This document shows positions 2,607 to 64,000 of a stretch of 64,000 nucleotides of DNA, piece by piece; the stretch's first letter is position 1, and the number at the start of each line of letters is the position of its first letter. The stretch comes from Squalus acanthias (taxonomy: Eukaryota). Made by a program: the position numbers and the translations under genes. The stretch spans positions 145,702,001 to 145,766,000 of the forward strand of contig CM059431.1 in assembly GCA_030390025.1 (NCBI GenBank). Direction: 5' to 3'. A model generated the notes under the pieces. The model had not been told where the DNA came from, made no database searches, and saw only the letters and a program-made list of their open reading frames with translations.

Positions 2607-2608
2607 TA

Positions 2609-5374: not shown

Positions 5375-5630
5375 GGGAGTGAGGTGTTCCTTTCTTTCTC
5401 TATCTTTCTCTATCTTTGTCAGCTTCCAGGAGAGCAGGCGCTAAAAAGCTGCACAAGAGGGGACAGAGAACCTGCGGTGAGTATTTCTACAGTATTTCTA
5501 CATTCCAGTAGCTAAAGTAAAAGTAAGGTCTCTAGTTTAGAGTAAGTAGTGTTTCAAGGGAATAAGGTTCCTAGTGTATTTAATATTCTTTAATTTAAAG
5601 GCAGTAAATGGTGTAAATTAAGGGTAGGAC

Positions 5631-6566: not shown

Positions 6567-6699
6567 GGGCGGTGGTTTAAACTAACTTGGCAGAGGGATG
6601 GGAAACGGAGTGGAGCTATAGTAGGGGTTGATGCACAGCCAAATATAGAGGGAAAAACAAGTCAGCCTGGAAGGCAGAACAAATATGTAACGGCAAAAG

Positions 6700-9600: not shown

Positions 9601-10085
9601 ACACCCTAGTCTACTCCTCTAGTCACTTCACAGCCCTCTGGACTCAACATAGAGTTCAACAATTTCAGATAATATCCTCAGCCCCTATCATTTATATATA
9701 TATTTTTTTATCCAGACTCTTTGTCTGTCTTTTTTTTCTTCTCCCCCACATGGCAACTGTCTTTCATTCTGCCAGCGCAATTTACACTTCACCTAGAGTC
9801 ATCCTTTGTTTCTTAACCTGTCCCATTACCATCTCCTTTTGCCTTTAAAATCTCTTAATGTCTCTTAACCTCTTCCATCCTTCTATCCTATCACAGATCT
9901 TCCCTTTTGTTCTTTCATCCGCTCGCCACTTTCCCAGCCTCTACACTTGCTTAAAAATCTGTTCAATTTTCTGCTTTATTCCAGTTGTGACGAAAGGTCA
10001 TCGACCTGAAACGTTAACTCTGTTTATCTCTTCACAGATGCTGCCTGACCTGCTGAGTTCCTCCAGCTTTTTCTGTTTTTATACC
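9601..10085 (+). mobile_element. Penelope-like element remnant (terminal part), continuous with 4851-4907 across the CR1 insertion
   Basis: GGGACCGCTCCCTCTGCAAC|ACCCTAGTC junction; terminal GAAACGTTAACTCTGTT...CCTGACCTGCTGAGT sequence recurs at 43200-43320. Confidence 0.6.
9983..10019 (+). ncRNA. Degenerate minimal hammerhead ribozyme (Penelope-associated)
   Basis: AGTT-GTGACGA-A-AGGTC-atc-GACCT-GAAAC-GTT-AACT: stems I and II and GAAA box present; first C of CUGANGA mutated to G. Confidence 0.55.
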
Positions 10086-10102
10086 AGTAAATTAATCATT
10101 GG

Positions 10103-20525: not shown

Positions 20526-20751
20526 GAAATTGAACAGCTCAGTCCATGAAACTCCGTCCATTAAAATCAATGAACGGAAAGTAATCCCCGAGTAGATGGA
20601 CTCAGCGCATGTCCAGTAAACCCTGAAGGAAAAAGAAAACGTCCCCCCGGACACTGCAGTGATTTCTTGGAGCCTCATCTTAATTTGGTGAAATCGTCAT
20701 TGCACAATTAAAATTCGTTTTGTACTGTGATGATGAATGATGTTGAATCGG

Positions 20752-22585
20752 TTCTAACATTACTGGAGTTGACCCTAATCTAACATTACTGGTGGTGACC
20801 CTACTCTAACATTACTGCTGGTGACTCTACTCTAACATTACTGGTGGTTACCCTACTCTAACATTACTGGTGGTGACCCTACTCTAACATTACTGGTGGT
20901 GACCCTACTCTAACATTACTGGTGGTGACCCTACTCTAACATTACTGCTGGTGACTCTACTCTAACATTACTGGTGGTGACCCTACTCTAACATTACTGG
21001 TGGTGACCCTATTCTAACATGACTGGTGGTGACCCTACTGTAACATTACTGGTGGGGACGCTACTCTAACATTACAGGCGTTGTCTCTACTCTAACATTT
21101 TGGTGGTTTCTCTACTCTAACATTACTGGTGGTGATCCTACTCTAACGTTATTGGTGGTGAACCTACTCTAACATTACTGGTGGTGACCCTACTCTAACA
21201 TTACTGGTGATGACCCTACTCTAACATTACTGGTGGTGACCCTACTCTAACATTACTGGTGGTGACCCTACTCTAACATTATTGATGGTGACCCTACACT
21301 AACATTACTGGTGGTGACCCTACTCCAACATTACTGGTGGTGACCCTACTCTAACATTACTGGTGGTGACCCTACTCTAACATTACTGGTGGTGACCCTA
21401 CTCTAACATTACTGCTGGTGACTCTACTCTAACATTACTGGTGGTGACTCTACTCTAACATTACTGGTGGTGACCCTGCTCTAAAATTACTATTGGTGAC
21501 CCTGCTTCAACATTACTGGTGGTGACCCTACTCTTGCATTACTGTTGGTGACTCTACCCTAACATTACTGGTGGTGACCCTACTCTAACATTACTGGTGG
21601 TGACCCTACTCTAACATTACTGCTGGTGACCCTACTCTAACATTACTGGTGGTGACCCTACTCTACCATTACTGGTGATGACCCTACTCTAACATTACTA
21701 TTGGTGACCCTGCTCTAACATTACTGGTGGTGACCCTACTCTTGCATTACTGTTGGTGACTCTACCCTAACATTACTGGTGGTGACCCTATTCTAACATT
21801 ACTGGTGGTGACAATACTCAAACATTACTGGTGGGGTCCCTATACTAACTTGACTGGTGGTGACCCTACTGTAACATTACTGGTGGTGACGCTACTCTAA
21901 CATTACAGGCGGTGTCTCTAGTCTAACATTTTGGTGGTTTTCTACTCTAACATTAATGGTGGTGATCCTACTCTAACATTATTGGTGGTGAACCTGCTCT
22001 AACATTACTGGTGGTGATCCTGCTCTAACATTACTGGTGTTGACCCTACTCTAACATTACTGGTGGTGGCCCTACTCTAACATTACAGGTAGTGATCCTG
22101 CTCTAACATTACTGGTGGTGACACTGCTCTAACATTACTGGTGGTGACCCTACTCTAACATTACTGGTGGTGAGCCTACACTGACATTACTGGTGTTGAC
22201 CCTCCTCTAACATTACTCGTGGTGACTCTACTGTATCAGTACTGTGTTAACCCTACTCTAACATTAATGGTGGTTCCTGTACACTAACATGACTAGGGTT
22301 GACCCTACTCAAACATTACTGGTGTTGACACTACTTTAACTTGACTGTGGGTGGCCCTAGTCTAGCATCAATGGCTATGCCTCTACTGTTACATTACTGC
22401 TTGTGACTCTACGATCATATTACTGGTGCTTACTTGGCTCTAATATTACTGTACGTGACCCTAATTTAACATTGTTCTTGGTGATCCGATTCTAATAATG
22501 CTGCTGTTCTTCCCAAATGTTACTGCTGCTAACAATACTCTAAGCTATTGGGTGGTGATTCCTCTCTACCATTACTGCTGTTGAC
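20752..22585 (-). repeat. 26-bp satellite array, inverted orientation
   Basis: (CTCTAACATTACTGGTGGTGACCCTA)n. Confidence 0.96.
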
Positions 22586-29433: not shown

Positions 29434-30387
29434 TCACGTATCTCCAGGGCAGTCCTCAGTTGCCGCATCTGCCAGTGCTTTCCAGTAGATCAGCATCTCG
29501 TAGGGTTTCACCCTGTGAGAAGCCACGAGTTTCCGAAAGGTACAAACAGAAAACGGGACCTTTGAGTCCTGGTTTATTTTGCGCGAGTGGATTTCCACCG
29601 GCTCTATATTTAACTTAGCCAGGCAGAGACCGATGAAAACGTCCTCGAGTTTCAATTTCCGGACGCTCTTCGAAACGTTCCAAACTCGGTAGGCGACATC
29701 GGTCGAGAGCACGTACCCAGTGCCGGAGCAGTATGGCGGATACCTTTCCAAAGGGTATTCCTCTTAACTCACGTACCATTTACTGGATTTGTCCCTGATG
29801 GGTCTTGGGTGTCTCAGTATGTAACCGGTGAAGATATTCCTGCGACTGGTTCGTGACAAGAGCTCTCTCATAAAATCAACGTTGACAAACATGTCTGAAT
29901 CAGTTTTCATCACAAAGGAGGCGGACGGACAAAACTGGCTCACCCATTCCAGGCCCATCAGCACCTTGGTGGTCAGGTTGTAATAAGTTTCGCCGAACTC
30001 TTTCTGTATGATGTCTTTGTGTAGCAAACCTTCCTCTAGCAGATGCTGCTGATGCTCCCGGCTGTACCCGAGCAGGAAGTAGGTCACTACCCTCTTGCCA
30101 TGTGTTGACCGCTCTCTACCCCAGGTCTGCCGAATGGCCGAGCGAGCTTCGAACTGCTCCTGGACACTGGTGATGAGAAGGACCAGGGATGGGGGACCGA
30201 CGCCACACCTGCTGTCGGGTCGCATTAAGAAGGAGGCATCATTTAACTCCGGGTGATGTGAATGTTCAGAAATGTTGCGGCTTAAATATCCGAGTCTAAT
30301 AAGTATCAGCAAAAGGGACACGCAATCAAATGAACGTATCTTTGGACGTAAGTTAAAACAACATGTATAACCAGAAAATATCTTCAT
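29434..30387 (-). pseudogene. Beta-1,3-galactosyltransferase (GT31; B3GALT5/B3GALT1/2-like) with an in-frame TAA at 29764-29766
   Basis: ARSAIRQTWG, YFLLG, DIIQ, YYNLTTKVLMG, FVMKTDSDMFVN, KWYVS*EEYP, YPPYCSGTGYV, LEDVFIGLC; acceptor TTTTACAG at 30400-30407 just upstream of the ATG. Confidence 0.9.
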
Positions 30388-30669
30388 ATTTTGAATCACC
30401 TGTAAAATAAAATAAACACATTGATTATGGTGGAATCCGGGTAATGCAAAGGGAGACACTTTCCATTTTAAGATTATTTGGCTGTATCAAGTGCATAGAA
30501 ATAGGAGGAGACCATTCAGCCCCTCTAACATGTTCTGCCATTCAATTAGATCATGTCTGATCTGTATCTGAACCCCATTTACCGACCGTGAAAAACTAAT
30601 CCTTAATGCCCTTACCCAACATAAAGTATATCAACTCAGATTTGTAGCCTTCATTGACCCCAGCATCAA

Positions 30670-36925: not shown

Positions 36926-38037
36926 ATGTCAACAGCAGTAATGTTGGAGAGGAGTTACCACCCATTAACTTAGAGTATTACCAGCAGTAACTTTTGGGAA
37001 CAGTCACTACCAGCAATATTAGAGACGGATCACCACGAATAATGTTAGATTAGGGTCACCTACAGTAATATTAGAGCTATGTGAGCACCAGTAATATGGT
37101 CGTAGAGCCACCAGAAGTAATGTAACAGTAGGACCAAAGCCATTAATGTTAGAGTAGGGTCACCCCCAGTCATGTAAAAGTAGGGTCACCACCAGTAATG
37201 TTTGAGTAGTGTCACCCCCAGTCATGTTAGTGTCCAGGCAAGAGCAGTAATGTTAGAGCAGGGTCATCACCAGTTTGTTAGAATAGGTGCAACACCAGTA
37301 ATGTTAGAGCAGGTTCACCACCAGTAATGTAAGAGTAGAGTGAACACCAATAAGGTTAGAGTAGAATCACCACCAGTAAAGCTAGCGTGGAGCCACCACC
37401 AGTAATGTTAGAGTAGAGTTACAACCAGTAATGTTAGAGTAGGGTCACCACCAGTAATGTTAGAATAGGGTCACCACCAGTAACGCTAGAGTAGGGTCAC
37501 CACCAGTTATGTTAGAGTAGGGTCACCACCAATAATGTTAGATTAGGGTTACCACCAGTAAGGTTAGAGTAGTGTCACCATCAGTGTTGTCAGAGTAGAG
37601 TAACCACCAGTAATGTTAGAGTAGAGTCACCACCAGTAATGGTAGAGTAGAATCACCACCAGTAATGTTAGTGTAGGGTCACCATCAATAATGTTAGAGT
37701 AGGGTTACCACCAGTAATGTTAGAGTAGGGTCAGCACCAGTGTAGTTAGAGTAGAGTCACCACCAGTAATGTTAGTGTAGGGTCACCACCAATAATATTA
37801 GAATAGGATCAGCACCAGTAATGTTAGAGCAGAATCACCAGCAGTATAGTTGGAGTAGCGTCACCACCAGTAATGTTTGAGTAGAGTCACCACCAGTGAT
37901 GTTAGAGTAGGGTCACCGCCAGTAATGTTAGAGTAGGGTCACCACCAGTAATGTTAGAGTAGGGTCACCACCAGTAATGTTAGTGTAGCGTCACCACCAG
38001 TAATGTTAGAGTAGGGTCACCACCAGTAATGTTAGAG
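36926..38037 (+). repeat. 26-bp satellite array (mirror of 20752-22585, shorter)
   Basis: Tandem 26-nt units. Confidence 0.95.
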
Positions 38038-38468
38038 CCGATTCAATTATTCATCATCACAGTACAAAACAAATTTTAATTATGCAATGGATGAGTAACG
38101 ATTTCACCAAATTAAGATGAGGCTCACAGAAATCAACGCAGTGTCCGGAGGGACGTTTGCTTTATCCTTCAAGGTTTACTGGACACGCGCAGTGTCCATT
38201 TCCTCTGCGATTACTTTCCGTTCATTGAATGTAAACGACGATGTTTCATGGACTAAGCTGTTCAATTTCCCCATTGGCGACCCAGGCGCACTGAAGTTGA
38301 CATTCGCCCCTTGTTTGTTAACTAACTGTAACTAACGCCAATTATTGTGCAACCTGATTATCTCACCGGGCCACCGATTGTTCTATAAAGGGGGCGCATT
38401 TACGGATCTCAGAAACACTCTACTCGGAATCGTAAAGCAGCGCAGAATTCACACAAATCTTCAAAACA

Positions 38469-40210
38469 ATTGTACGGCCAATAATTTTACAGATACGGGA
38501 CATTTACTACCATATCCTCGCAGCATTTGGCATTCCCGGTAAGTCAATGTATCCTGTTGCCTAATACCTGCTGACTATCTCAGTGTTAATGTAAGAGATT
38601 CCGAGAATGTCCATATTGCAGAGTCATTTATTCACCGGGATCTGTCGGTGAATATTAGCGGCAATCCTAGTCGTCCGCGCGACCGCTGAGGCACTGTTCT
38701 GGTCGCTACATCCCGGGCACCGGACGCTCAAAGTTCCTCCCTATACTGAGGGAGGGCGAGGCTGATTCCCCGGCCCCTCCAACAACACATAGCTCACTGA
38801 AGAATGTGCTGCTCAGTGCCCATAGCAATCACCTCATTTGTGCCGTAGTTCCCTTTCTACATTAAGTGACTCGGACTGCAGAAATCTCCACCCAACAGGG
38901 GATTGTGAAAGGTATTTTACGAAATAATTTTCACTCAGGAAGGTGCTCCCCTCCTCTCGGCAGCTTTTGAGTATAATTTGAAAGTTTTTTTTTGTCGGAG
39001 TTGAATGTTTTATTTGAATTATATCTTTCCTTTAATTGCTGTGGAATTATATTTAATACTTGATTGAAGTTTGCTGGACGGACGGCGGATTTTCAGTTCC
39101 TCGATATTGAATGTTCAGTGATTTCATTCCTTTAAATAAAGTGTCTTCACCATCGCCTAAATTAATGAAAAAACCCGTCCGCATAACGCTGACTAGGACC
39201 ACATCTGATCATTTCCCCACAATAATCTGTGAGATTTATCTCAATGAACCAATTACTGACCTCTTCTCCCTCATTCTCACAGCGAACCTACTGACAATCG
39301 TGATTCTCTCCAGAGGAAACTGCGGCCTTTCCATGTGTATCTCAGTCTACATGGTGGCCATGGCAACAGCAGATCTACTGGTCATGACCATCAATATATT
39401 AGTGAACCGCATTTTACGTTATCACTTTCCACATTCATTTCTGTCGTTAACTGCCGTTTGTAAGATCATTATATACCTGCAATGTGTCGCCCTGTATTTG
39501 TCGGTGTGGTTTACAGTCTCGTTCATATTAGACCGATTTGTAGCTATATGTTGTCAGAAGTTTAAAACAAAGTATTGCACAGTGAGACCTGCGGCCGCGG
39601 TTATAACAACGGTCTCTGTCCTGATCTGTTTACAGAGCCTCGTGTTTTGGTTTGCATTTGAACCTGAGCAAATCATTAACAATGTTCACTGGGGTTGCCG
39701 CTCCAGAGTGGAGTTTTCTTCATCGCCTGTAGGAGTGGCGTTTCCCTGTTACGTAGCATTTGTTTTTCTTGGCTTAGTTTCGCTTTGATATTACTGTTTA
39801 ATTGTTTGACAGCCAGACGTATTTTAGTGGCCAGTCGAACCCGCAGGGGACTCCGGGGTCACAGCAGTGAGAATCAGAGCGATCCAGAGATGGAGAGCCG
39901 AAGAAAATCCATCATTTTACTGTTCACTCTATCGGCCAGTATCATACTATTGTGGCTGACAACTATGGTTACTAATTTAACTACCAGACTGACAAGCACC
40001 GTGCATTACCGAGGCGATTATGCGGCCCCTGCCTATATTGCCACTGAAACCGGATATATGCTCATGTATTTGAGTTCCTGTACAAACACGTGTATTTATG
40101 CAGCTACTCAAACTAAATTCAGGGAAGAGCTGAAGCAGGCGATGAAAACACCTTGGACATTTATTTGCAAATAAAAGAAAATATAAAACAAGGATTTCGG
40201 TCCAAACTAG
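38469..40210 (+). pseudogene. GPR139-like GPCR paralog, pseudogenised (exon 1 38469-38538, exon 2 from 39283)
   Basis: ATG>ATT at 38469, 1-nt deletion near 39741-39748, TAC>TAA at 40172-40174; splice sites retained. Confidence 0.85.
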
Positions 40211-43419: not shown

Positions 43420-45300
43420 AAATGGTTTATGTTCCCCCTGGTCCCAATTTATAATTAAACAGTTACAGCATTCCCCATAATTCCCCTGTCCTCTCTTTCG
43501 AATTAAAAAGTTAACATCTTCCCATTACTTCCCCTGTCCTCTATTTCTAATTAAACAGTTACTGTGTACCCCTAAATTACCCTCTCCTCTATTTCTAATT
43601 AAACGGTTACTGTGTTCCCCTAAATTACCGTGTCCTCTATCTCTAATTTCACAGTTACTTTGTACCCCTAAATTACCCTGTCCACTATTTCTAATTAAAC
43701 AGTTACTGTGTTCCCCTAAATTACAATGACCACTATTTCTAATTAAAAAGTTACTGTGTTCACCTAACTTACCCTGTCCTCTATCTCTAATTACACAGTT
43801 ACTCTGTTCCCCTAAATGAACCTGAACTCTATCACTAATTACACAGTTACTGTGTTCCCCTAAATTACCCTGTCCTCTATCTCTAATTACACAGGTACTG
43901 TGTTCCCCTAAATTACCCTGTCCTCTATCTCTAATTACACAGTTATTGTGTTCCCCTAAATTACCCTGCCCACTATTTCCAATTAAACAGTTACTGTGTT
44001 CAGCTAAATTACCCTGTCCTTTATCTCTAATTACAGTTACTGTGTTCACCTAAATGACCCGGTACTCTATCTCTAATTACACAGTTACTGTGTTCCCCTG
44101 AATTATCCTGTCCTCTGTCTCTAATTAAACTGTTACTGTGTTCCCCTAAATTATCCTGCCCTCTATCTCTAATTACACAGATACTGTGATCCCCTAAATT
44201 ACCCTGTCCTCTATCTCTAATTACAGAGCTACTGTGTTCATCTAAATTACCCTGTCCTCTATCTCTAATTACACAGTTACTGTGTTCCCCTAAATTAGCC
44301 TGCCCTCTATCTCTAATTACACATTTACTGTGATCCCCTAAATTACCCTGTCCTCTCTCTCTAATTACAGAGTTACTGTGTTTCCCTAAATTACCCTGTC
44401 CTCTATCTCTAATTACACAGTTTCTGCGTTCCCCTAAATTACCCTGTCCTCTATCTCTAATTACACAGTTATTGTGTTCCTCTAAATTACCCTGTCCTCT
44501 ATCTCTAATTAAACTGTTACTGTGTTCCCCTAAATTACCTTGTCCTCTATCTCTAATTAAACAGTTATTGTGTTCCCCTAATTTACCCTGTCCATTATAT
44601 CTAATTAAACTGTTACTGTGTTCCCCTAAATTACCCTGTCCACTATTTCTAAGTAAACAGTTACTGTGTTCCCCTAATTTACCCTGTCCATTATCTCTAA
44701 TTAAACTGTTACTGTGTTCCCCTAAATTACCCTGTCCTCTATCTCTAATTACACAGTTACTGTGTTGACCTAAATTTCCCTCGCCTTCATCTCTAATTAC
44801 ACAGTTACTTTGTTTACCTAAATTACCCTGCCCTCTACCTCTAATTAAACTGTTACTGTGTTCCCCTAAATTACCCTGTCCTATATCTCTAATTACACAG
44901 TTGCTGTGTTCCACTAAATTACCCTGTCCTCTATACCTAATTACACAGTTACTGTGTTCCCCTAAATTACCCTCTCTTCTATCTCTAATTGCACAGTTAC
45001 TGTGTTCCCCTAAATTACCCTGCCCTCTATCTCTAATTACACAGTTTCTGTGTTCCCCTAAATTACCCTGTCCTCTATCTCTAATTACACAGTTACTGTG
45101 TTCACCTAAATGTTTCCTGTCCTCTATCTCTAATTACACTGTAACTTTGTTCGTATAGTTCCCGTTATTCTCCTGATAAGTAAGCAACTGTTATATTCAC
45201 CTAAGGTCTCCTTTATTCTATTTTTAAATAAAGAGTTGCTGCCTTCCCCTCAATTTACCTGTCCTGTAATTTAATTAAACACTTACTGTATTCCCGTGAA
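43420..45300. repeat. 48-bp minisatellite (CTCTATCTCTAATTACACAGTTACTGTGTTCCCCTAAATTACCCTGTC)n
   Basis: About 35-39 tandem units; produces 16-aa repeat ORFs on both strands. Confidence 0.96.
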
Positions 45301-51239: not shown

Positions 51240-54120
51240 GTCCTGGTTGGTCTTTTTGAACCGCTGCAATCCTGTGGTGACGTTGAAAAATCCACTTGCA
51301 GGATTTTAAGTCAGCAATGATGAAGGAACCATGATATGTGTTCAGGTCAGGTTAGCCTGTGATTTACAGGGAAGATTGGAGCAGCGGGTATCTCAGGACT
51401 TTGCTGCTCTTATCCTTATCAATGATGGAGAGAGCTGGTATGAGCGGTGATGTTAATTTAAGCTTGGTGATTTGCAGTGGATAATACAGACTGCAGCAAT
51501 AGTGCACTGATGGTGACCGGTGTGGATATTGTGGATTTGAATCAAGCAGAATGTTTTGCCCTGAATGACGCCGAGCTTTATGGCTGGTGTTGTGCGTGTA
51601 ACCATTTAAGACGAGTGGTGATTATTCCATCACATGCCTAACTTGAGGCCTAGTGAAGAGGCTTTCAGAGATCAGGACGAGAGACACATATCGTGGAGAA
51701 CACAGCCTCTGCCGTTCATCCGCAGTGTTGACACAGCAGGTGCCGTTAATCTTCTGGTCAATGGGCATATCCAGGATGTTGATGGTGCGGCAGTAGGTGA
51801 TTTTGTTGCCGCAAAAAGTTGGGGGTATTGTTGTGACTTTTCCTGTTGGATCTGGTAATTGCCCAGCACTGACATGGCACAAAAAAATACCTGCCTCTTG
51901 TTAGCACACGCCTGGGAAATGTTCTTGTCCTGAAATAGGCTCTCATGGGCTGCTTCATTATTTTGGAAATGGAGCAGGGCACTGTTGAATTAACAGAGAA
52001 CGGATCGATTCCTGAACTTATGACAGAGCGATTGTTATTTATGATTGTACCTAACCAAGGGTGTAGCCCTGAGAAAGTCCAATTGTGATGCTTGCCCTCT
52101 AACAGCCATGCCCATTTTACTGATAATGATTCCCTTATACCCCCGATAACTATTACCTACGGTTTAACAGGGCTTCTTGATGTTGTCCTCGATCGGATCT
52201 GCACTCATGTCTACGGAAGTTAATCTCACATCTCGTGTCGCATTTTCTCTTATATCCAGGTCTCTATCAAGGCTGTGATGAAGTTTGGAGCTGAGCGGTC
52301 CAGGCTGAGCAGGAACTGATTGTTGGCGAGTCGAATATTGTTTTGTAGATGACCCTCGATAGTTCTACAATTGACTAATTCTATCACTGTATTGATGATT
52401 ATTAAGATATTAATAGGGCAAAAATTGGCTTTGTAAATTGTGTCATTTTCCAATGAACTGAGCAGAAGTCGGAAATTTCTTATTTTATCAGGTATACTAG
52501 TAACACAACTGTACTGGAATAGACTGGCTGTGGGGGTGGTGGTGGTGGTTAATTGTTTTAGGCAGGTCTTAGTAACTACAGACAGATACATCAAGCAATT
52601 AGGAAAGCAAATGTTATGTTTGCCTTTATTACAAATGGATTGGAGTGTAGGATAAAGAAACATTATTGTAAATATATAGGGCCTTGGTGAGACTACACCC
52701 GGAGTACTGTGTACAGTTTTTGTCTCCTTACCTGAGGAAGCATATACTTGCCTTAGAGGGAGTGGAACGATGGCCTGCCAGACTTATTCCTGGGATGGGA
52801 AGGGGGTGGGATTGTCCTATGAGGAGATATTGAGGAGACTATCCAAATATTCCCTAGAGGTAATCTCATTGTAACGTATACAATTCTTAAGAGGCTTGAC
52901 AGGATAAATGTTTAGAGGATGTTTCCCCTGGCTTGGGAGTCTAGAAGTAGGTGTCACTCTCTCAGAATAAGGGGTCAGTCATTTAGGTTCGAGATGAGGA
53001 GAAATGTCTTCACTCAGAGGGTTGTGAATCCTTGCAATTATCTACCCCAGAGGGCTGTGGATGCTCATTCGTTGAGTATATTTTCAGAACAGAGATGGAT
53101 TTTTGGATACTAAGGGAACCAAATAATATGGGACTATTGTGAAAGGTGGACTTGAGGTAGAAGATGAGCCATTATGCTTTTGAAGGGCCAAATGGCAGAC
53201 TCCAGCTCCTATTTCTAATGTTCTTATGTTCTTAACTAGGGTTCTGTTAGGATCAGTTATCTCTGCGGTCAGTTTGTTCCAGTGCTTCCTATTGTCACGT
53301 GCGGAGATCTCCATTGGCTTGACGCTGGGCTGAATGCTTATGGGAGCCACGTTTGCTCGTTAAAATTTCACTTTTGGCTGAATCTACTTCGAACACTGAA
53401 GCCTTGTTTCCATCAGCGGGGTGTCTTGGACTCGCCCCTGCCTGATAATCTCCTGTTGACACTCCCATTAATAAATGGATGTGGCAGGCAGTGTACGCTT
53501 AGTTCTTATTGTTTGGCCGTGGAACACATTAACTTGATCTGCAACACTCTGCTTTTGCCGTTTTGGGTTTAATTGTAGTTTAACTAAGTTAGTGCCTCAT
53601 TCTCAGTTTCAATGCTCTTGTTCCTGTCACGTTATTTAATTGTCCCCAATTAAACCCATAGTTGGAATTTTTACATTATAGTGCCGTTAGATTGTAGAAT
53701 TGTATAGGTCAGGCATCAGACATTGTCGAGGGATATAATTCTGCGAATTTGAAGGGCCCACAACACCTTATGTACGCCCAGTATCTGGCTACTAGCTATT
53801 GCCTCACTGGTAGAACTGCACAATAGAGAGTGTTCTCATTGTGGAGTCCAGACCTTGTCAATAGAAGGATTGTGTGGTGGTTACATCGATGAAAGCAATC
53901 ATCTACAGACGTGTCTCTGACTGGTGCATTATTGAAGATGTGATCAAGTAGGTCACTCCACACTGCCAGTACTCTCAAAGCACATGCAGTAGTCTGGGAG
54001 ACTGCCTTTGTAAATATAATCTGTATCAAGCTGTTGCTTGAGCAATCTGTGGGGGAGCTCTTCCAAATTAGCACCAGTCCCCAGATGGCAGTCAGGAAGA
54101 ATTTTCTGGTTGGGCTGGTC
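51240..54120. mobile_element. Highly decayed minus-strand LINE interrupted by a plus-strand CR1 3' fragment (~52590-53230)
   Basis: YKANFCPINIL and RSAPNFITALI remnants; CR1 FTQRVVN and tail TTCTAATGTTCTTATGTTCTTA. Confidence 0.6.
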
Positions 54121-55069
54121 TGGAATTGCCTGAGTCTTGTCCTGAATTGATGCTGTAGTGTTGTCGATTGGTCGATATTATAGTTCCCTTATTTATTGTT
54201 TCAATCACGTGCTCTGAATACCCCTTTGTTTGTCAGCACAACTGCAGGTCCTTTTTCAGTGAATATACTTTCCCAAGGCCCGTGTTGTCTTTGGCAGGGA
54301 TGATGCCTGCTGGCAATGGAAAGTGAGAACGAAGGAGAGACAGCTTTATTAGTAATTTTGGGAGATTTACAGTCACGACCATTGTTTGTTCCCATTTTTA
54401 AACAACATGTTTTTATATCAGATACACTGGAATGTGTCAATCTGGTTTCATGGTTGTTTGGATTAAGTGCGATTGATTCTGTCTAGCAGGATCATCTCTT
54501 TGACTGAATATTGGCAAATCGCCCCGGCCTGCTGCACGCCCACAGTGCAGAGTTGCAAATATACAAAATAATCCTGTCTTTTTTCTCTCTGCAAGTATTT
54601 CTGGTGGAGTTTAATGAACTTTATTTCCAGGGTTTGGATTCCATAGATGTGCAGACTGTTTGAGTAAATATAGCATGGGACACAACACATTGTCTTTTTA
54701 GCTCAGTTTTCGATAATTTGCGGCCCTTTGATGTGTGTCTGACTCAGGGCGCACCAGGCTTTGCGAAGTCTGGGCAGGATTGGACGGAAGTAGGCTTTCT
54801 GCAATCTGAGGAGTGTTCAAAGGTTGACTGTTCTTTTTGCAGAAGACTAATAATTGTTGCCGGCTTGCTGATGACTTGATCGTGATGTAATGGCTGGGTC
54901 CAGGCCACATCTCGCTGAGAATTTATACCCAGGAACTTCTGCTCTTTGCTGGCCTTGATTTGTTGTGACCGCCACCATGTGCTCACCTGCTGTGCTGTGC
55001 GACTGTTCCGTTTGGACTATCTCTAGTTTCCTCACTAAATCGCTGTGTTGGGACACAATCTTTAATAAC

Positions 55070-56163
55070 TGTAAGGGGTATCTTAAGTGAGCGGTTCGAA
55101 TCGAACAACACCCCTCCGGTTCCTAGACTTTGGGCTTATTTAGGGGTTGTGAACAAAATTGCAGTAAACAGGTTCTGAACAAAGAAATTTACTTTCTTAA
55201 AAGAAAAAGGTAACAAACTTGAAAACACACGTATTACTTAAACACAGATTCGGGGAACACACGGTACAAGCGAGGGAAACGACAATAAATCAAACAAAAC
55301 CCTATCCCTCCCAAATATCCCACTATCTGGCTAGGTTTTTGGTTTCAGGAGATCAGGGATAATGCTCACCAACGAGTCCTTGACAGGATATTAGAGTCTT
55401 TTTGTTTAAAAGGACTCCGGAAGGCCCTTATGGTTTCTTCTTGCGTGCTGGTTTTCTTCCTCGTGGGTTGTGGTAAGTTTTGCTGGAGCAGGGAGAGAGC
55501 TGTGTTCGCGTCGCCAGTCAGTCCAAAGAGAGAGAGATTATGGCACAGGCTTTCAAATTATACTGTATCTTTTTTCGCGCTCAAAACCCCTTAATAAAAC
55601 GAATTCCTTTTAGAATGTAAATGACCCTCTGTCTCGTTTTTGGCGGGCTGGCCAGCTCCGATGGTTCTTGCTTAGTGTTAATCGCTTTCCGATTTAAACA
55701 CCGCCTTATCTACACGCCAAATCTTCACTCTATTGTCCTTCTGTTTGGCAGGCTTTTAAATCGGTTCTCTGATTACCTGATTGATTGTTTTTTTTGGATG
55801 GGATAATGGCTATGAAACTGTGTGATCGAAATTAAATTGTCATTGAATCGTTTTTAGATTTCCAGCATCTTTAAGCCCCTGGGGATCCATATTTGAATGT
55901 GTTTGTGAGTTTTTTTTTTGGTTTTGTCGAGAGATTACTGCACTGCCTGGCCACGCTCCTCTGCAGCCTGTGTGTTTGTGAAGGCGTCTTTCCCCAGTAA
56001 GATTCGAAAAGTCAGTTTTCTCAAGGTTTTCTTCTTGTGGTCTTAGGTTTTTACATCAAATCACTTCACTGAGGTCCCATCATCCCAAGTTTGTATGAAA
56101 AGTCCAAAAATCACTCCCTTTAGGGCTCTGTTCGAGTTTCTGGGGGATTTTGCGAAGCCTACA
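55070..56163 (-). repeat. 3' LTR (~1094 bp)
   Basis: TGTAAGG...GCCTACA; direct repeat of 2609-3744 with substitutions and a ~40 bp indel. Confidence 0.93.
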
Positions 56164-56175
56164 TACCCCACTTTG
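56164..56175 (-). promoter_or_regulatory. Polypurine tract
   Basis: Minus strand CAAAGTGGGGTA immediately precedes the LTR TG. Confidence 0.7.
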
Positions 56176-56448
56176 AAACTAACACTGACTTAGTATCATT
56201 AACAGGTGAGCAAAATTTCCGATCCCCGAAAACCAACCTTCCCCTGTATTACCTAAACTAAAAACCCAAACATTAATTCCCCTTTTGAAAGTGGTGTTTC
56301 AGGTACATACAGGTAAAAATCAATCTTTATTTCACATCCAAGCACAGAGAGAGTACAACTCCCTGCACAGCTTGGAAAAAAACACATCATACACATCGTA
56401 AAAATGACACAACACACATACAATTTTTTTTTAATTAAAAGACGAAAT

Positions 56449-58723
56449 TCAAGTTTCGTTCCATCCCTGGCCACAGCCTTTCTTTTGATGCACTTCCCAA
56501 GTCCCTTCGTGTCTGGAGCGGAGCTCCCCGTCCCTTCCCCTGCACTTTGTACACAGCAGGTAGAGAACTATCCCGAGCTGGCAGACCACCAAAAGATGGG
56601 AAGCCATCCTGATCCAGGACGGCACCTCTATATTCTCGAAAATATCTAACCAGGGTGGAACTACTATATTCAAAATCTCTGCCCCTATTTCAACTGTTTT
56701 CTGTTCTAGGGTGTAGAAATATTTTTGTGAAATCTCTACAGCTTTAAGTAGGATGGTAAGATGTTCGGGTAGAGTGGGAATTTTATATCCAAAGTAAGTC
56801 ACATACTTTTGCAGGTTGGTGATGTTTTCTGTTACAGTGACGTGAACAGTGGGGGGTTCAGGATGGGGGACAATCCGTTCCTGGGCCACTTGAACTTCTG
56901 CCTCGGGTTTAAAGCATAAACTGCTGTCGCTTACCGGACACCAGAAGTGTCCATGCTGGTAGTGAGTCGCACCTGTGGTGACACAATATGTCCCACCGCC
57001 TATATATGCTACCTTTGGGGAAACATGGCCGTGTGCCATCACCTCCATGGTACAATTGATAGGTCGTGCTCCAGCAACTTTAAACCCGCACTGTGGTTTG
57101 GAATAGGCGTTCAAGTGCTGGGGACACAGTATTATGTGTGAACCCCGGCTCCGGCACCCGGAGAGGTCAGTACCTGTCATGGCGTGCTCCCACTTTATGA
57201 CATAAGGTGGGACCGCTGTAAAACGGATGTGTGCACCCACTTGAATGACTCCAATGTTCTCCACCCTGTATACCGTTACGGGTCGGGCTGTCTCACTCAT
57301 GACCGGCATTCTCACTACTATTCCCATGATAGTGTGATTTGAACGCCCACAATATATTGGGACAGGGTAGGCTTCAGAGGCTAGTCGAAATTGGCATGGG
57401 CTCAGAGAATTACTAAACGGGTGGAGGGCTGCAAGGTGCTTGTTGCTGATACAGGAGGGGACTAAACCTTGCTTTAAATCCTCCAGGTTGCTACGGCCCT
57501 CGACAGCAACCATGCCCCGTACAGCACACACACCTCATTCTGTGCAGCCTGATCCGATGCATTCCTATCCTCCCGTATGAGTGCATTTACTGTTTTGACA
57601 TGCCTTTACTATTCTGCAATAATTTCCTTTAAATGAACCGTCATAGCTTGCTCCTCATGTAGCTCTGAGCCTACCACTGTGTTCCCATCCTTCAGGATCT
57701 TTCCTAACTGGGTTTTAACCATTTATCTGTGTCTGTAATTCCATGTCATCCCGTGCCCATAGGGTTATCAGGGTGTATTCTGTATAGCTCTACTTTGCCT
57801 ATATTGGCAAAATCAAATTCGTAAAATTTCCGAAACAGTTCCTTTAGCAGGGCCTGGTACAGCTGCTCCGTCTCCTTAGGACACCACTCAGGTAAGTATA
57901 CCTCGGTAAGGTTTAATATTACTGAAGCTACTGCATAGTGTACCCCCTGGTATAGTACCTTTTCGTTTGGTACTAGGACTAACCCATTCCCTGGTCCCTT
58001 GGTGGTGGTAGGGCACTTTTCTTCCAGGGTTTTCGGTACCTGGGTCGTGGGTAGGGGCTTCGGGTGTGTGCCACGAGTTCAGTGGCATTAACTGGGACCG
58101 GAATGTATGGGACCACGCACCCATGCAGGCTAGAATCCCACCCTATCCCCTCCCCGGCATCTTTCCATTTGCTGGAGATGATGACGGATACCCCTGTGGG
58201 GCAGGCTTCCTCTGATCCCCACATACAAACATAGACTCCCTGTTCTGAAACCCACCACTTATCCCAACAAACACTAACTCCTCCTTGTGTCCCTGTGATT
58301 GTCCGGTGGGTGTCGTTCCCTAATCGTTCCCAGTGGGCTGAATGGTCCCCTGCGTCCCTGCTCAGCTTCCTGAGCCACCACCACCTATTCAAGGGAATTC
58401 GTCCCTTACAGGTAAGGCACACACGCTTCCCCTCGGTGACACTGACCCTTGTGGCAACGACCTGTATTCTGGGGCATGGCGGGGAGGCCTCCCCGTACGC
58501 GAACCCGGGCTGGTTGGAGTATTTAGTAGAGTTAGACACCAGCCACCCTGGCCACCTTCCCTCGTGGAAGTAGATGGCGAGCTCCTCCACTCCCCGCTCG
58601 CCACCCCCTGTGGTGACGACTGGTGCTCTCACTCCTGAGCACCCATAGATGTCGGAGTCCTCCACGTCACCTCGGTCACCGATGCTCACCCTACCAGGGC
58701 GAGCAGGACCAGAACCTTGTCAT
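56449..58723 (-). pseudogene. env: env: signal peptide, Ig-like domain, F-protein-like ectodomain and TM anchor; frameshifted
   Basis: KVLVLLALVG-VSIG leader; VTEGKRVCLTC..WWW..QGVYVC; GLVLVPNEKVLY..WC..LYQALL; heptad region; IVVRMP..VYRVENIG..VPPY..DLSGC..ILCP..C..C..GGTYC; TM ASHLLVVCQLGIVLYLLC. Confidence 0.8.
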
Positions 58724-59213
58724 CCCGAAGTCCTTTCTGTAGGGGCACACACAAAACATATATCCATGTCCCAAAAAGGTTCTCTGGCTGGATAATTAAT
58801 CAAACCCTTAAACTTAAAAAAAACTCTACAAACAACTAAACTAGCGATAACCATAACTACCAAAACTGCAATTACTTAAAACCGAAAAATTCTGTACATT
58901 TGCCGCCCGTCTCCTGTTTAGTCTCTGCCTTATGTGGCCTCTGGATGGCTTGTACACCTGGGTATAGTGCGGCCTGTTCCGCCGGACCCAGAAGGCCTTC
59001 CTCAAAACCGCTGGGGGTAACTTAACATCCCAGCTGCGTCCTGTACTGCAGCACACTACCCCCTTTTGTGTGACTGCAGCGCCCTCGTTCATATCTGTGG
59101 GCTCCTCCCAGCCTGAGGCTGCGGGCGGGGGACCCTTCTCTCTCTCTTCTTCCAGTACTACCTCTCCTGTGAAACCCTCACTCTTGGAGGCTGCAGGCTG
59201 GGAATCCCCAACT

Positions 59214-62200
59214 TTAGAACGCTCCCTGCTCTTGGTGCTCTTTTTCGGGTTGCAACCCTCTTGGGGTGGGACCTTTAAACAGATACACCTGTGGAGACTG
59301 AAGCCTTTGCTGTGGTGTGCGGGGAGACCTTCTTAGGGCTCTGGCCACTGGGGGTGTGCTTGAGTCCCACATAATCGGTGGAGTGACCTCTCCTGTGAGA
59401 CAACACACTGTCCCTCCCGCTGCAGCTTGTGCGTCTGCCACAGCTGCGGCTGGCTGAGGGTTTCTAACTTGGGGGCCATCCAGCTTTGCCGGCTGTTCCC
59501 TTTTAGGTTTAAACAGTTTGCATTGTTTGATGTGAAACCACGTTGTACGGCGGGGCATCTTTATGGCATAGACCATGGGGCTTGCCTTGTCTACAATGTT
59601 GTAGGGCCCCATGTACAATGGTTCGAAACTCCCTACCCGAGCAAAATTTCTAACCATGACCTGATCTCCAACCTCCCACTCGTGGTGCTTGCGGGGTTCC
59701 AGCAGCAATCGGTTACCCCAATGCTGTTTTCCCATGTTACTCGCAGCCTGCCAGTGGACCTTTTTAAGGTGGTCCAACAGATTCCTGACGAATATGTCCC
59801 GGTTCACCTCCCTGAGCTGCCCTTCCCTGAGCACCGGGGCTAGCACATAGGTGGGGGTCCGCATAATCCTGCCAGTCATGAGCTGGTGTGGGGAATACCC
59901 CGTGCTTTTTGACTGGCTGGCCCGGATCCCCATTAGGACCAACAGTGAGGCGTCTACCCACTTTTTGGGTGAGTCTCCCATCTCCTTTCGCAGCCTTTCT
60001 TTGATGGTACGGTTTAAACGCTCCACAATCACTGATGACTGTGGGTTGTGGGCGATGTGCCATTTCCCTTCTATGCCGAGTACCCTGAGGATCTCTTGCA
60101 TGACCTGCACAGTAAAGTGACTCCCCTGGTCTGACTCCACATACTGTAGGAGCCCCCATCGTGACAACACTTCCCTGACCAGGATCCTGGCTGTACCCAA
60201 AGCGGTAGCTGTTCGACATGGAAAAGCTTCCACCCACTTTGAGAACACATCCACCAGGACTAGGCAGTATTTGTAGCCACCCTGAGCGGTGGGTAGGTGC
60301 CCGATGTAGTCGACCTGGATCGACTGCCATGGTCCCTTTACCCTCCTGATGTGTCCCATAGATACCTTCCTTTTCTGTGGGTCAGTGTTGTTAGCAGCAC
60401 ACACCAGACAGCCTGCACAGAACTCGCGGACATCCTCCCTCAGTCCTGGCCAACATCCTGCCTGTTCCACCCGCTGCCAGGTGGTCTCAAGCCCGGGATG
60501 CCCCGCTCCTGGACCCTCACGGGTCAGTTGGAGGATTTCCCTTCGGTGCTGCTGCGGCACTACCCATTGTTCCCCACTGAACAGCATCCCTTCTTTGCGG
60601 GTGATGGCTGCTGCGCCGTAAGGGCCCTCTACCTTCTCCCCTCTAGCCAGCGTTTCCAGGACAGTTTTTAGGATGGGATCCCGTGCCGGGACCGTCTTTA
60701 GGTCCGGGGTCAATGCTACCCCTGCACTCCCTTGGGTCCCTCCTCTGCCTCTGATTGATGCTACCGGGTTTGATCCATATGGATCCAACAACGTGCCTGT
60801 ACTGGCACCCTCTTTGGCCAGCATGTCGGCTTGGTGATTGCCCTCTGCGCGGGGCTTTACCTTGGAATGGGCCTTCACCTTTTGCATGTATACCCTACCT
60901 TCCTCCCCTACTGCCCTCATGATTTTCTCCAACAGAGCCTTGATGGCCAGGGATCTCACATCAGCGGAGGCGTATCCACAACGGGACCAGATGGCCAGGT
61001 ACTCTGTACACGAATTGCATGTGAACATGCTGTCCGAGCAAATCGTGTATGGCGTAGGGAATTCCTTGGGGTGTGTGACTACATACACCACCGCAGACAG
61101 TTCAGCCTGCTGGGCACTCATGGTGCTGGGGAGCTTGATTGCCAGAGCAATGCCTGCCTCTGGGTCATAAATCCCACACCCTGTGGGTCGTTTGCCAGCT
61201 GATACTGTGCTTGAACCGTCCACGTAGATTTCGCGGCCTGTGGGGTGTATCCCAGCTCGCAAACCTATGTTGACTTCCCATACCCCTTCAACGGAACTCC
61301 GGTGGGCTGTCCCTGAGTAAATCATGTTTGCTACGAGCTTTGGCTCGCAGAGACCTTTTACCCTCAGATCCATTTGTGAGAGAAGCAGGGTCCAGCGAGC
61401 AATGCGAGCACTGCTCACTGTCCCATCTTTAATTCTCCCATCCAAGAGCATCTGGGTGGGCGTGTGGTGAGTGAGGAGTGTGATGGGAGAGGTGCCTGTG
61501 AAGATCAATGATCTTTTCACAGCCCAGTGAGTGGCTAGGAGGTGCCTCTCACAGTTGGAGTAGCTCCTCTCCACATCAGTGAGCATTCTGGTGAAGTAAA
61601 CCACTGGTCTCAGCTTGCCATGCCTGTCTTGGAGCAGCACTGTACTCAGACTGTCCCCACTGGCTGCTACCTCCAGGAAAAACTCTACCCCTCCATCAAT
61701 GGCCCCTAGAGCCATGGCGGTTTGCAGATCTCTCCTGAGTTTCAGAATGGTAGCCTCGCAACCCTCATCCCAAACCTGCTCCACTCCCTTGTGTAGGAGT
61801 CGGAGCAGAGGGGCTGCTGTGGCTGCGTAATCCTCAATGAAATCTCTGCAGTACCCAGTTAGCCCTAGAAAAGACCTTACCCCTGTAACTGTGTTGGGGG
61901 CTGGTAACTCCTGAACTGCTTCCCTTCTAGCTTTGTCAATGGCCCTCTCCCCTGCTCGCACAGCCAGGCCCAGGAATTTGACTTCCCGCTGGCCAATCTG
62001 TGCCTTCTTTAGGTTTACCGTAAAGCCCTCTTGCCTGAGCAGTTCCAGCAGTTCTGCAGAAGGAGACCATGTTCCTCTCACTCATCGGTAAAGAGGATTA
62101 GGCCGTCCACATACTGGACCAGCTGATGGGCCTGCTGAAGCCCTTCAAGCAATTCACCATACATTGGGGAAACATGCTGGGCTGTTGTGGGAGCCCTAGG

Positions 62201-63168
62201 GCAGACAGTTCCATGTGGACGGTTGGCCTTTAAATGTAAAGGCGAACTTGTACTGATCCTTAGAGGGATGGACCAGAAACCGTTGGAAATATCCAGCACT
62301 GTAAAGGTGGTCGCAGATGCCGGGAAACTTCCAATGAGGTCGGCTACGGCTGCAACCGTGCGGGCACAGGCGGGGATGTTTCGGTTGAGTACTCGATAGT
62401 CTACTGTGGCCCTCCAGGATTTATCTGGTTTTCTAACCGGCCACAGTGGGGAGTTCACATGGGTAACTATAGATCTCAATATCCCCTGCTTGACTAAAGA
62501 AGTCAAAGCCGTTTCAAGTCTGTCTAAGCTTCCCTGGGGAAGTTATACTGCTTTTGTGGGCGGTTCATGGGGTCCCCACTGACACTAACCTCGACCCCGG
62601 TTACACTCCCACAGTCGTGCTTGTGAGTGGCAAATGCTGCGAGGTTTTCCGGCACAAATGCCTGGTACTCCCTTGGAGTGTGACTGACCATGAGTTCTAG
62701 GTCGTAACCATCCTTTGGTTTTACTGTGCACAAGGTCCCCTTGCCTTGTGCCTCCGGGATGACTGCTACCTCACTACTATTTTGGGTACATGCTCCCCAT
62801 AGACAGTGGTTCCTTAAATCCACTAAAATCCTGTGGCCTGTGATAAAGTCGGCCCCCAGGATCCCCTTCCCTTCTTGCTCCCACTTCATTAGGACACAGG
62901 TCCACTTGGTGTGGAGCGTTCACAAATGAATGGACAGCGGGATGGAGAATGAGCCAGCCTGCTCGTTACCTGTGAATCCCACTAGGCTGCACGGGACCCC
63001 GTTATACAGAGGTGAATTGGCTGGGTTATCTGAATAAATGAGGGTGCTCGAAGCTCCTGTGTCTAACAGATAGTTCCCTTCTACCTTTTCTACCTCCATC
63101 TTAACATGCGGTATCTTCCAGGCATCATACTCGAGGGGACACAGGTAGACCGGCTGTGCTAGCTCCAG
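59214..63168 (-). pseudogene. pol: pro-pol: protease, RT (YVDD>YVDG), tether RNase H, second RNase H, integrase with GPY/F; frameshifted
   Basis: 955-aa ORF 59214-62081 plus ORFs 62078-62506 and 62524-62889; LDISNGFWSIPL, VRSFLGLTGYCR, IYVDGSS, AQQAEL, SDS, VKAH, GNHQAD, GH..C..C, VDYIG, SDQG, VERLN, GPY. Confidence 0.93.
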
Positions 63169-64000
63169 TCATGCCTCTGGGTTGAATGGGGCAGATGGGA
63201 TCAGAGCGCCAGTGGCTGTAGCCACCTTCCCTGGGCCACAAACAGGACTCTGATGGCCACTACTATTATGTCCAGTGTGAGGGAAGACGTCGGAGCCTCT
63301 ACTTTTGGGGCAGGAGTTGGGGACTTCTTTGCTAGGCTCTCCTTCCAGGGATTCCTACAGTCCTTTCTCCAGTGCCCAGTCTTCCCGCACCCGAAGCAGC
63401 TACGCTTCGTGTCGGAAGGTTTACCACCTTCCTGGTGCCACTCCTTCTTATCCTGACTGGGCTTTATCTCATGCACCTTCCCTTTCGGTGGGGTGTCTTC
63501 ATCTCCCCTAACGTTCCAGTAGGCTATTGTCAGTTGCCCTGACCACTGCCTCCTCGGTGACCCGGGGCTATCTTGGTCAAACCAAAGCTCAGCCTTGGCT
63601 TTGACTCGTGGCAAGCTGTTTGCCACTACTCTACGGAGCCAGTGGGCCAGCTCGTCCCGGTTCAGGTAAGCCCTGTCGAGAGCCCCATTACAAGCACCCC
63701 TGTACACCGGCCACAGCCTGTCTGCGAAAACCTGTTGGGTCTCCCCTGCGAGCTGCACTGTTTTCTCCACCCGGGAGAAAGGACATCCCTCAGTCATTCC
63801 CATGGCCTCTAATACTTCCTCCCTGAAGGCAGCATACCCGGTCTGTCCTCCCTTGCTCTCAGTAGAGAGTGACTGGTACAATTTGCCATCTAATGAGAAC
63901 AAGAGCAATTTTGCCATATCGGCATCGTCAATCGTAATGGCTCCTGATTGTTCCACCTCCATGAAGTGGACTGAGGGGTCTTCCTTTTGGGTAAGTTTAC
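63169..64000 (-). pseudogene. gag: gag 3' half of copy B (runs off the right edge)
   Basis: ORF 63201-63962, near-identical to copy A. Confidence 0.9.

Follow-up and report, generated by a model that had tools for sequence, protein, structure and literature searches.

Introduction

Which lineage is represented by a retroviral element whose envelope resembles that of one group and whose polymerase falls with another? The question is raised by an endogenous retrovirus (ERV) of the shark Squalus acanthias, found at positions 55070-64000, on the minus strand, of a 64-kb stretch of contig CM059431.1 (assembly GCA_030390025.1). The whole of that stretch is referred to here as the window. Lokiretroviruses are separated from retroviruses partly by an envelope protein (Env) that resembles the fusion (F) proteins of Mononegavirales. 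The original prediction for this locus was a lokiretrovirus-like ERV with two RNase H domains and an F-like Env, which would belong to the lokiretrovirus lineage or to an immediate sister of it.

One half of this prediction stood and the other did not. To judge from profile comparison, the Env is homologous to lokiretrovirus Env and is of the lokiretrovirus/F type. Trees of reverse transcriptase (RT), of integrase (IN) and of the two combined, approximately unbiased (AU) tests and a comparison of Gag place the element outside the lokiretroviruses in Pol and Gag, and the lokiretrovirus-like label thus fits Env but not Pol. We consider that the element is probably a defunct member, duplicated in tandem, of an ERV lineage of elasmobranchs in which Gag, protease (PR), RT and IN from the canonical side of the retroviruses are combined with a class I Env of the F/lokiretrovirus type.

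Gene order and the domains of Pol

Stop-to-stop reading frames and Pfam matches identify 55070-64000 as the 3' 8.9 kb of a provirus of ~11.05 kb. From 64000 down to 55070 the order is gag, protease, RT, a degenerate RNase H of the Ty3/gypsy type that serves as tether, a second RNase H, IN, env and the 3' long terminal repeat (LTR), in agreement with the predicted succession of IN, env and LTR after the second RNase H. The predicted left border, 55070, is exact, as a 1094-bp LTR ends there. Gag is represented by its 265 C-terminal residues (63201-63998), in a frame that extends past the end of the window and contains a zf-CCHC match (Pfam, E 2.5e-4) with its knuckle at ~63354-63401. The protease (LLDTGAS) and a linker lie at 62524-63168, with a weak Pfam RVP match, and the broken N-terminal half of RT at 62078-62542 (Pfam RVT_1, E 5e-6). 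Both were also delimited by tblastn with P0001, a PR-RT-tether-RNase H-IN protein of 1145 aa that is 75% identical to the window.

The remainder of pol is an open frame of 955 aa (59214-62081), 75-80% identical to P0001 and to a second close relative, P0002, in which Pfam recognizes the C-terminus of RT, the tether, RNase H and IN. Both RNase H domains of the original prediction are present with the motifs that it had quoted. The degenerate one, expected at ~61380-61690, lies at 61376-61685 (aa 133-236; RT_RNaseH, PF17917, E 1.2e-17) and reads FFLEVAAS..SNCERHLLA..LLTHH, so that the positions of the catalytic TDAS and TDH of gypsy elements are occupied by VAAS and THH. The complete retrovirus-type domain, expected at ~60805-61230, lies at 60804-61232 (aa 284-426; RNase_H, PF00075, E 6.7e-20). 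Its motifs are IYVDGS, QAEL, SDS, KAH and GNHQAD, and the residues D (YVDGS), E (AEL), D (SDS) and D (QAD) are kept. Tether and second RNase H share a single frame, a feature that canonical retroviruses have in common with lokiretroviruses and that does not discriminate between them. IN follows with its zinc domain (Integrase_H2C2, 60384-60560, Pfam 4e-16), its core (rve, 60042-60332, Pfam 6e-16) and a weak Pfam match to an SH3 domain (59517-59639).

An envelope of the lokiretrovirus type

The env gene begins with an N-terminal surface part in a frame of 246 aa (57979-58719), located by tblastn with the Env protein P0044; its Pfam match to Ig_3 (E 0.0035) is below the cut-off. The same query located a conserved F2-like segment (GLVLVP..LYQGVHYAV..) at 57746-58078. 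Heptad repeat region A (HRA) follows in another frame with two in-frame stops (57504-57719; tblastn with the Env protein P0042), and a C-terminal frame of 361 aa (56449-57534) includes the end of HRA, Cys-rich globular domains, heptad repeat region B (HRB), a transmembrane anchor and a tail. An untranslated stretch (56164-56448) separates the env stop from the LTR, and a short purine run directly before the LTR, AAAGTGGGG, may be a weak candidate for the polypurine tract.

A search of all cluster representatives returned 25 Env relatives at E<=1e-3. Their alignment has the layout of a class I fusion protein. A conserved segment precedes an RxxR/RRKRR site, after which come a hydrophobic peptide and an extended heptad region; the Cys-rich body (CGF..C..AYxGxGxYCV) is then followed by another heptad region and a transmembrane segment. 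Envs of this type are 676-754 aa in length and have an extra N-terminal part of ~180 aa, for which there is only a weak Ig-like match. Homologous-protein searches for Env, one in the longer form and one with an alignment, gave only 1 and 2 matches, respectively.

Lokiretroviral sequences for comparison came from two metagenome contigs, L059 and L060, which were retrieved by means of a short RT motif printed in the supplement of the original description of lokiretroviruses (Wang & Han, Mol Biol Evol 2021, PMC7947760). The contigs are presumably host DNA in the metagenome. Their gag, pol and env agree by eye with the published proteins of teleost lokiretroviruses. Each is a near-complete lokiretrovirus of the teleost type, with gag, a pol frame of 1745 aa and an env of 568 aa.

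When the profile of shark and frog Envs was compared with the lokiretrovirus Env of L060, hhalign gave a probability of 97.7% with an E-value of 1.4e-12. The alignment covers 355 columns, beginning in the F2-like segment and reaching the Cys-rich body. The F2-like segment of the window (57746-58078) is the part that aligns with the N-terminal part of the lokiretrovirus protein. As controls, a gamma-type Env of the same genome gave 0.1%, the Env of an exogenous spumavirus 7.3%, and a fragment of shark foamy-type Env 75.8%, here over 140 columns. The lokiretrovirus Envs themselves match PF00523, the family of paramyxo- and pneumovirus F proteins, at E 1.2e-5 (L059) and at 2.2e-3, both below the cut-off, and thus reproduce the weak match to F that has been published.

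Structure prediction points in the same direction. AlphaFold models of the 361 aa of the window and of the full-length shark Env P0046 had pLDDT values of 63 and 52, with pTM of 0.28-0.29. In a Foldseek search of the PDB, the window model had one match at E<=1e-3, the F protein of parainfluenza virus 5 (2.2e-4), and the P0046 model had 226, headed by the F protein of human parainfluenza virus 3 (7.7e-9, prob 1.00). The matches listed for both models are almost only paramyxo- and pneumovirus F proteins, together with a few chains of foamy virus Env. The predicted fold of the Env therefore appears to match that of these F proteins, albeit in models of low confidence, and the predicted resemblance to Mononegavirales F was borne out to this extent. 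Since there is no direct match, the tie to PF00523 is indirect, through lokiretrovirus Env (L059) and Foldseek. The language-model neighbours of P0046 were Fusion_gly and Baculo_F and also Gypsy clusters, and among the Env relatives there was one weak Baculo_F match (P0056, E 0.0011). The window frames, L061 (the env frame of a related family described below), P0065 and P0066 had no match to PF00429 or PF03408. A phmmer search of PDB sequences with Env gave only IMPDH at E 1.3, and VIA-align (wide) returned only long helices and was uninformative.

Placement of Pol and Gag

An RT and IN phylogeny had been suggested with the original prediction, and was built. As the RT of the window is broken, the family that carries this Env (here the F-env family) is represented in the RT trees mainly by relatives. 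Reference rows were host-genome ERVs located upstream of foamy-type and gamma-type env genes, the two teleost-type lokiretroviruses L059 and L060, and exogenous retrovirus genomes of IMG/VR, labelled gamma, delta or spuma by the Pfam types of their Gag and Env. When IMG/VR was scanned with P0001 or an alignment of Pol, the outcome was either no match or contigs of gypsy-like character, and the lokiretrovirus motif had no match there. A second scan with an RT profile returned only the same gamma, delta and spuma genomes, and a looser motif scan found 4 loci, none of them retroviral.

The RT tree of 37 rows (IQ-TREE, C20 mixture) recovered the published topology. Gypsy rows were set apart at 98/97, and lokiretroviruses were sister to a canonical clade (99/97) of 22 rows, which contained the gamma, delta and spuma references, the shark ERVs and the F-env family. 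Within this clade the groups were the F-env family (100/99), shark ERVs with gamma-type Env (below, shark gamma-Env ERVs), Spuma with shark foamy-type ERVs (100/100), and Gamma with Delta (98/95). The RT of the family is thus neither inside gypsy nor inside the spuma clade. When the family was forced together with the lokiretroviruses, the cost was 17.4 log-likelihood units (AU p 0.02). An earlier set of 32 RT rows gave the same topology, with the canonical clade at 100/97.

The IN trees include the window's own unbroken IN, which falls within the F-env family at 100/100. They join the family with shark gamma-Env ERVs at 96/93 and 85/88. Foamy IN groups elsewhere, in agreement with a published report. 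A combined RT+IN set (26 rows, 514 columns, without a foamy row) gave lokiretroviruses as sister to a group of shark gamma-Env ERVs and the F-env family including the window; this group had support of 100/99, and the whole 100/100. The union of family and lokiretroviruses was rejected on this set (AU p 0.0074).

In pairwise comparison, P0001 is 43-44% identical to shark gamma-Env ERVs in RT and 48-49% in IN; the corresponding values are 35-38% and 36-42% for gammaretroviruses, 33% and 43% for lokiretroviruses, 32-35% and 30-34% for spumaviruses, 28-31% and 27-33% for deltaretroviruses, and 23-34% and at most 38% for gypsy elements. Against the PDB, P0001 scored about equally with Ty3 Gag-Pol, RT-RNase H of the murine leukaemia virus (MLV) type and foamy PR-RT, and its best IN match was the IN of prototype foamy virus (PFV). 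The Gag of the element has weak similarity to the gag of shark gamma-Env ERVs (E 4e-5) and none to lokiretrovirus gag.

Relatives, a sister family and abundance

The closest Pol protein, at 80%, is from Heptranchias perlo. Other close proteins are from sharks and a skate (Pristiophorus japonicus, Rhinoraja longicauda, Heterodontus francisci, Mustelus asterias, Chiloscyllium and Scyliorhinus), and more distant Env relatives are from frogs (Pelodytes, Xenopus).

The 3.71-Gb assembly of S. acanthias itself was then searched. P0001 gave 27,179 first-look candidates. The 40 matches that were scored are all 83-85% identical to it, and 36 of them lack a stop over ~1120 aa; the open frames around them measure 1167-1509 aa, with a length of 1496 aa in half of the cases (20/40). 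The lineage makes up a large part of this genome, apparently a young one, in which many pol frames are open. Abundance and open frames of this kind bear on the biology of shark genomes. Contigs of the family also occur in two runs that may be of RNA, one of which had none across most of pol; these contigs speak neither for nor against expression.

These searches also revealed a sister family (L035-L046, L061), with a Pol ~85% identical to P0001 and to which the IN of the window is 82% identical. In the one copy inspected for the pairing of pol and env, over 3.4 kb downstream, pol (L035) is followed by an open env frame of 676 aa (L061), whose identity to the Env relatives from sharks is 74-76%. 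The genome thus has two families in which the same type of Pol is paired with the same type of Env. A chance juxtaposition of env and pol in the window was considered and rejected, because the second family carries the same pairing. The gag of the element is 47-48% identical to that of the sister family in its C-terminal part and 39% in the N-terminal frame, which is seen in the duplicate described below. In the single sister-family copy inspected, L035, gag and pol occupy one frame across a single stop.

The same genome has 11 stretches of foamy-type Env (PF03408), and gamma-type Env (PF00429) with 78 scored matches of 947 candidates, many in frames of ~490 aa. With the F-type Env included, a single host thus has three types of Env or more.

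Comparison with known systems

Lokiretroviruses resemble the present lineage in having gag-pro-pol-env between LTRs, a tether followed by a second RNase H, and a helix-rich N-terminal part of Gag. Their Env likewise has an RxKR-type cleavage site, a fusion peptide, coiled coils and a transmembrane segment. In L060, as in L035, gag and pol form one frame across one stop. The differences are that neither RT, RT+IN nor Gag joins the lokiretroviruses, and that the Env of 676-754 aa, with its additional N-terminal part, is longer than the 568-575 aa of lokiretroviruses. The available part of PMC7947760, moreover, reports no lokiretrovirus in cartilaginous fishes.

The shark gamma-Env ERVs (L052, L055, L056, L058), of a kind with the 'ERVs-GTE' of anamniotes (bioRxiv 10.1101/2021.11.23.469661), have the closest Pol found, with an identical domain order, tether and RNase H included, and are sister to the family in the IN and RT+IN trees. 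Their Env, in contrast, matches TLV_coat (PF00429) and is unrelated to the Env studied here. Foamy viruses are canonical retroviruses in which structures of Env (8rm0, 8rm1, 8ozh) have an F-like core; the excerpt available of the paper that discusses them makes no mention of lokiretroviruses (PMC11468914). They differ from the present family in RT clade, IN and Gag, and also in Env, since the receptor-binding module of foamy viruses is placed between the subunits, according to the same excerpt, whereas the extra part is N-terminal here.

The Env family agrees with the F proteins of paramyxo- and pneumoviruses in the order of its elements, with an F2-like part ahead of the cleavage site and fusion peptide, then HRA, the globular domains, HRB and the transmembrane segment, and its predicted fold appears to resemble theirs, albeit in models of low confidence. 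It differs in having no direct sequence match to them in Pfam or the PDB, and in being encoded by a reverse-transcribing element. Errantiviruses, as described in the part of PMC13524379 at hand, are also LTR retroelements with an F-type envelope, and the Baculo_F and Gypsy neighbours in the language model recall them. They are distinguished by the position of the RT outside gypsy, by the retroviral-type second RNase H and by the vertebrate host.

Alternative affiliations

Several observations weigh against the combination of a canonical Pol with an F-type Env. On the side of Env, both models are of low confidence, with TM-scores to F proteins of 0.2-0.5. A direct match to PF00523 is absent from the window Env frames, from all of 24 relatives (E<=1), and from L061, P0065 and P0066, and a profile search of PDB sequences with Env gave only coiled coils. 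On the side of Pol, the family rows in the RT trees are the relatives P0001, L035, L043 and L056 and an X-masked row of the window with 63% coverage, and epsilon, snakehead retrovirus (SnRV), ERV-L, alpha, beta, lentivirus, non-teleost lokiretrovirus and Odin sequences lie outside the reference set. The position of the family inside the canonical clade of the RT tree is a polytomy, and the AU test on the 32-row RT set did not reject the union of the family with lokiretroviruses (p 0.066). The IN trees place the family and the shark gamma-Env ERVs beside lokiretroviruses, at 81/81 in the tree in which exogenous gamma- and deltaretroviruses lie elsewhere, and at 100/98 in the other. Several motifs of RT, tether and IN, among them FIEDYA, QYTWN and the tether pattern F.LE..S..SLSA..CE..LLAT.WAV, are common by eye with the published lokiretrovirus Pol (supplement of PMC7947760).

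The last three of these points, the homologous Env and the dual RNase H are what would be expected of a true lokiretrovirus or its immediate sister, which would extend that lineage to cartilaginous fishes as originally predicted. The same can be said of the score of tether plus RNase H, 127 bits against lokiretroviruses and 99-109 bits against shark gamma-Env ERVs, and of the NCBI label 'NYNRIN-like' on the close relative P0002, given that lokiretrovirus IN has been linked to CGIN1 in the portion of PMC7947760 available. We nevertheless regard this affiliation as improbable. Lokiretroviruses fall outside the canonical RT clade in both RT sets and outside the 100/99 group of the RT+IN tree, AU tests on the 37-row RT and the RT+IN sets reject the union, RT identity is 33% to lokiretroviruses and ten points or more higher to shark gamma-Env ERVs, and Gag has no counterpart in lokiretrovirus gag. 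In addition, five chondrichthyan genomes were screened for lokiretroviruses, with no positives in the order rows seen of that study (PMC7947760). Two of the screened species, Chiloscyllium punctatum and Scyliorhinus torazame, carry this Env family, which fits an RT that is not lokiretrovirus-like. A more serious contender, possible but still doubtful, is that the element belongs to a known group of fish retroviruses (epsilon-like, SnRV-like or another class I/III ERV clade) and that only the recognition of an F-type Env is new. The nearest Pol sampled is that of shark gamma-Env ERVs, for which the best-scoring RT in the PDB is of the MLV type; many ERV RT loci have been reported from cartilaginous-fish genomes (PMC11089739, in part); and the trees hold no row for epsilon, SnRV or ERV-L. 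Against it, the family forms a separate clade (100/99) outside the gamma, delta, spuma, shark gamma-Env and shark foamy groups. The survey of anamniote Env, as far as its text was available, covers gamma-type Env only, and no description of a retrovirus with a canonical Pol and an F-type Env was found in the full-text literature searched, of which parts were seen; other journals may describe shark ERVs.

An origin among foamy-like ERVs might be suspected from the F-like core now known in foamy Env, from the foamy Env chains among the Foldseek matches, from the 75.8% obtained with the shark foamy-type Env fragment, and from the IN, for which PFV IN is the best solved match to P0001 (1.9e-34). 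This is very improbable, as the RT clade of Spuma and shark foamy-type ERVs leaves the family out and foamy IN groups elsewhere. The gag has a CCHC knuckle and no match to Gag_spuma, PF03408 finds the 11 foamy-type Env stretches of this genome and not this Env, and exogenous spumavirus Env gave only 7.3% in hhalign. Least credible of all is an errantivirus-like member of Ty3/gypsy (Metaviridae) that carries an F-type env and is not a retrovirus. The tether does match gypsy RNase H models, the top PDB match of P0001 is Ty3 Gag-Pol (7e-68, summed over two stretches), and errantiviruses carry an F-type env (PMC13524379, in part). A complete second RNase H is present, however, gypsy rows lie on the other side of the 98/97 branch, and the same paper, in the part at hand, knows of no homologues of the invertebrate elements in vertebrates.

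Expected function and the origin of the envelope

If the canonical Pol and F-type Env are correctly assigned, intact relatives would be simple retroviruses with an LTR-driven transcript. Gag-Pro-Pol would be produced by read-through of a single in-frame stop, as suggested by the arrangement in L035. The second RNase H would act in reverse transcription, with the old gypsy-type RNase H retained as a connection domain only, and integration would follow. The Env would be expected to form a trimer that is cut at RxxR, freeing the fusion peptide ahead of HRA. HRA could then refold onto HRB beside the membrane anchor and so fuse the membranes.

The occurrence of an F-type Env with a canonical Pol can be read in two ways. 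Env may have been exchanged between lokiretroviruses and canonical retroviruses, or F-type env may predate the split between the two, which would fit the 2024 finding of an F-like core in foamy Env. Either reading makes the lineage a concrete test case for the origins of retroviral envelopes. A tentative form of the second, which we think rather unlikely as it stands, is that an F-type (class Ib) env was already present in the ancestor that lokiretroviruses share with canonical retroviruses. It would have been kept by lokiretroviruses, by the shark, perhaps also the frog, lineage and, strongly diverged, by foamy viruses; gamma-type Env would be a later replacement. If so, the shark lineage would be a surviving intermediate between lokiretroviruses and canonical retroviruses. 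The model favoured in the consulted part of PMC9040795, in which lokiretroviruses and retroviruses acquired env independently, with two captures, would then be wrong.

State of the copy

Breaks were mapped by aligning P0001, P0042 and P0044 to the window with tblastn. The protease has an in-frame stop at 62920-62922 and a change of frame near 62540, and is in a different frame from gag. RT changes frame and is interrupted by stops in the interval from ~62265 to 62082, and YVDG is found where relatives have YVDD. In addition to the two stops in HRA, env has a frameshift near 58050, a further change of frame near 57504-57535, and a gap of 72 nt at 57750/57751 relative to other copies, with which both the fusion peptide and the site of cleavage (RxxR) were lost. 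A contig of run X14 has 72 extra letters at this joint. Since protease, RT and env are all broken, the copy in the window is dead and cannot function.

A tandem duplicate and its long terminal repeats

Self-BLAST showed that 62385-64000 is 99.69% identical to window positions 1-1618, and that the 3' LTR has a twin, 100% identical, 62,391 bp to the left. Outside the window, 53878-62384 is matched on its left by L011 (99.7% over 8514 nt, with 5 mismatches and 8 gaps), and 1619-5117 on its right by L012 (98.5% over 3517 nt). As the matches continue beyond both ends of the window, one provirus of ~11.05 kb is present twice in tandem together with its flanks, at a period of ~62.39 kb and with copies 99.7% identical. 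The repeat may reflect a segmental duplication of recent date or, alternatively, two haplotypes that were assembled in duplicate.

The 5' part that is missing from the element is visible in the twin, at 1-3744 on the minus strand. The segment 1-1618 holds the protease and part of gag, and the twin extends to the left of the window. The N-terminal frame of gag (1545-2621), taken from the list of open reading frames, is rich in helices and had no match in a Pfam search. An 18-mer resembling a primer-binding site (TGG...) was read directly at 2588-2605. It begins 4 nt past the 5' LTR of 1136 bp (2609-3744). The first ATG of the gag frame (2604-2606) is 3 nt past the 5' LTR and overlaps the 18-mer, so that in this reading there is no leader. 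The true start codon of gag may be further downstream.

The 3' LTR (55070-56163) was read directly as TGTAGG...CTTACA and is 88-89% identical to the 5' LTR of the twin by self-BLAST (89% when taken from the 3' LTR). Besides its identical twin it had 44 scored matches from 2625 candidates in the genome. The closer relatives of the 5' LTR elsewhere in the genome are at 96-98%, and those of the 3' LTR at 93-96%. No target-site duplication was seen at the provirus flanks (..aatggc / gttat..). These findings suggest that the provirus is the product of recombination between two members of the family. Dating by LTR divergence was rejected, because the provirus reads as a recombinant with 5' and 3' LTRs from different subfamilies.

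Other features of the window

A 26-nt satellite forms arrays at four sites and on both strands (~3640-4900, ~10000-13060, ~20750-22500 and ~37000-38045), one of which adjoins the 5' LTR of the twin. Two paralogous genes of rhodopsin-family G protein-coupled receptors are present in opposite orientation: one of 366 aa is intact (18579-19679, minus strand), and the other is split by a frameshift (39111-40174, plus strand). At 43525-45133, on the minus strand, long open frames consist of a repeated unit of ~16 residues (GEHSNCVIRDRGQGNL). Their Pfam match to Fibrinogen_BP is probably compositional, and a tandem repeat is a likelier reading of the region than a gene. Pieces of non-LTR retrotransposons (GDSL/OSK-like ORF1, endonuclease and RT) and a galactosyltransferase exon (PF01762, 3e-33) were found at 5628-9255, 13394-15936 and 29764-30486.

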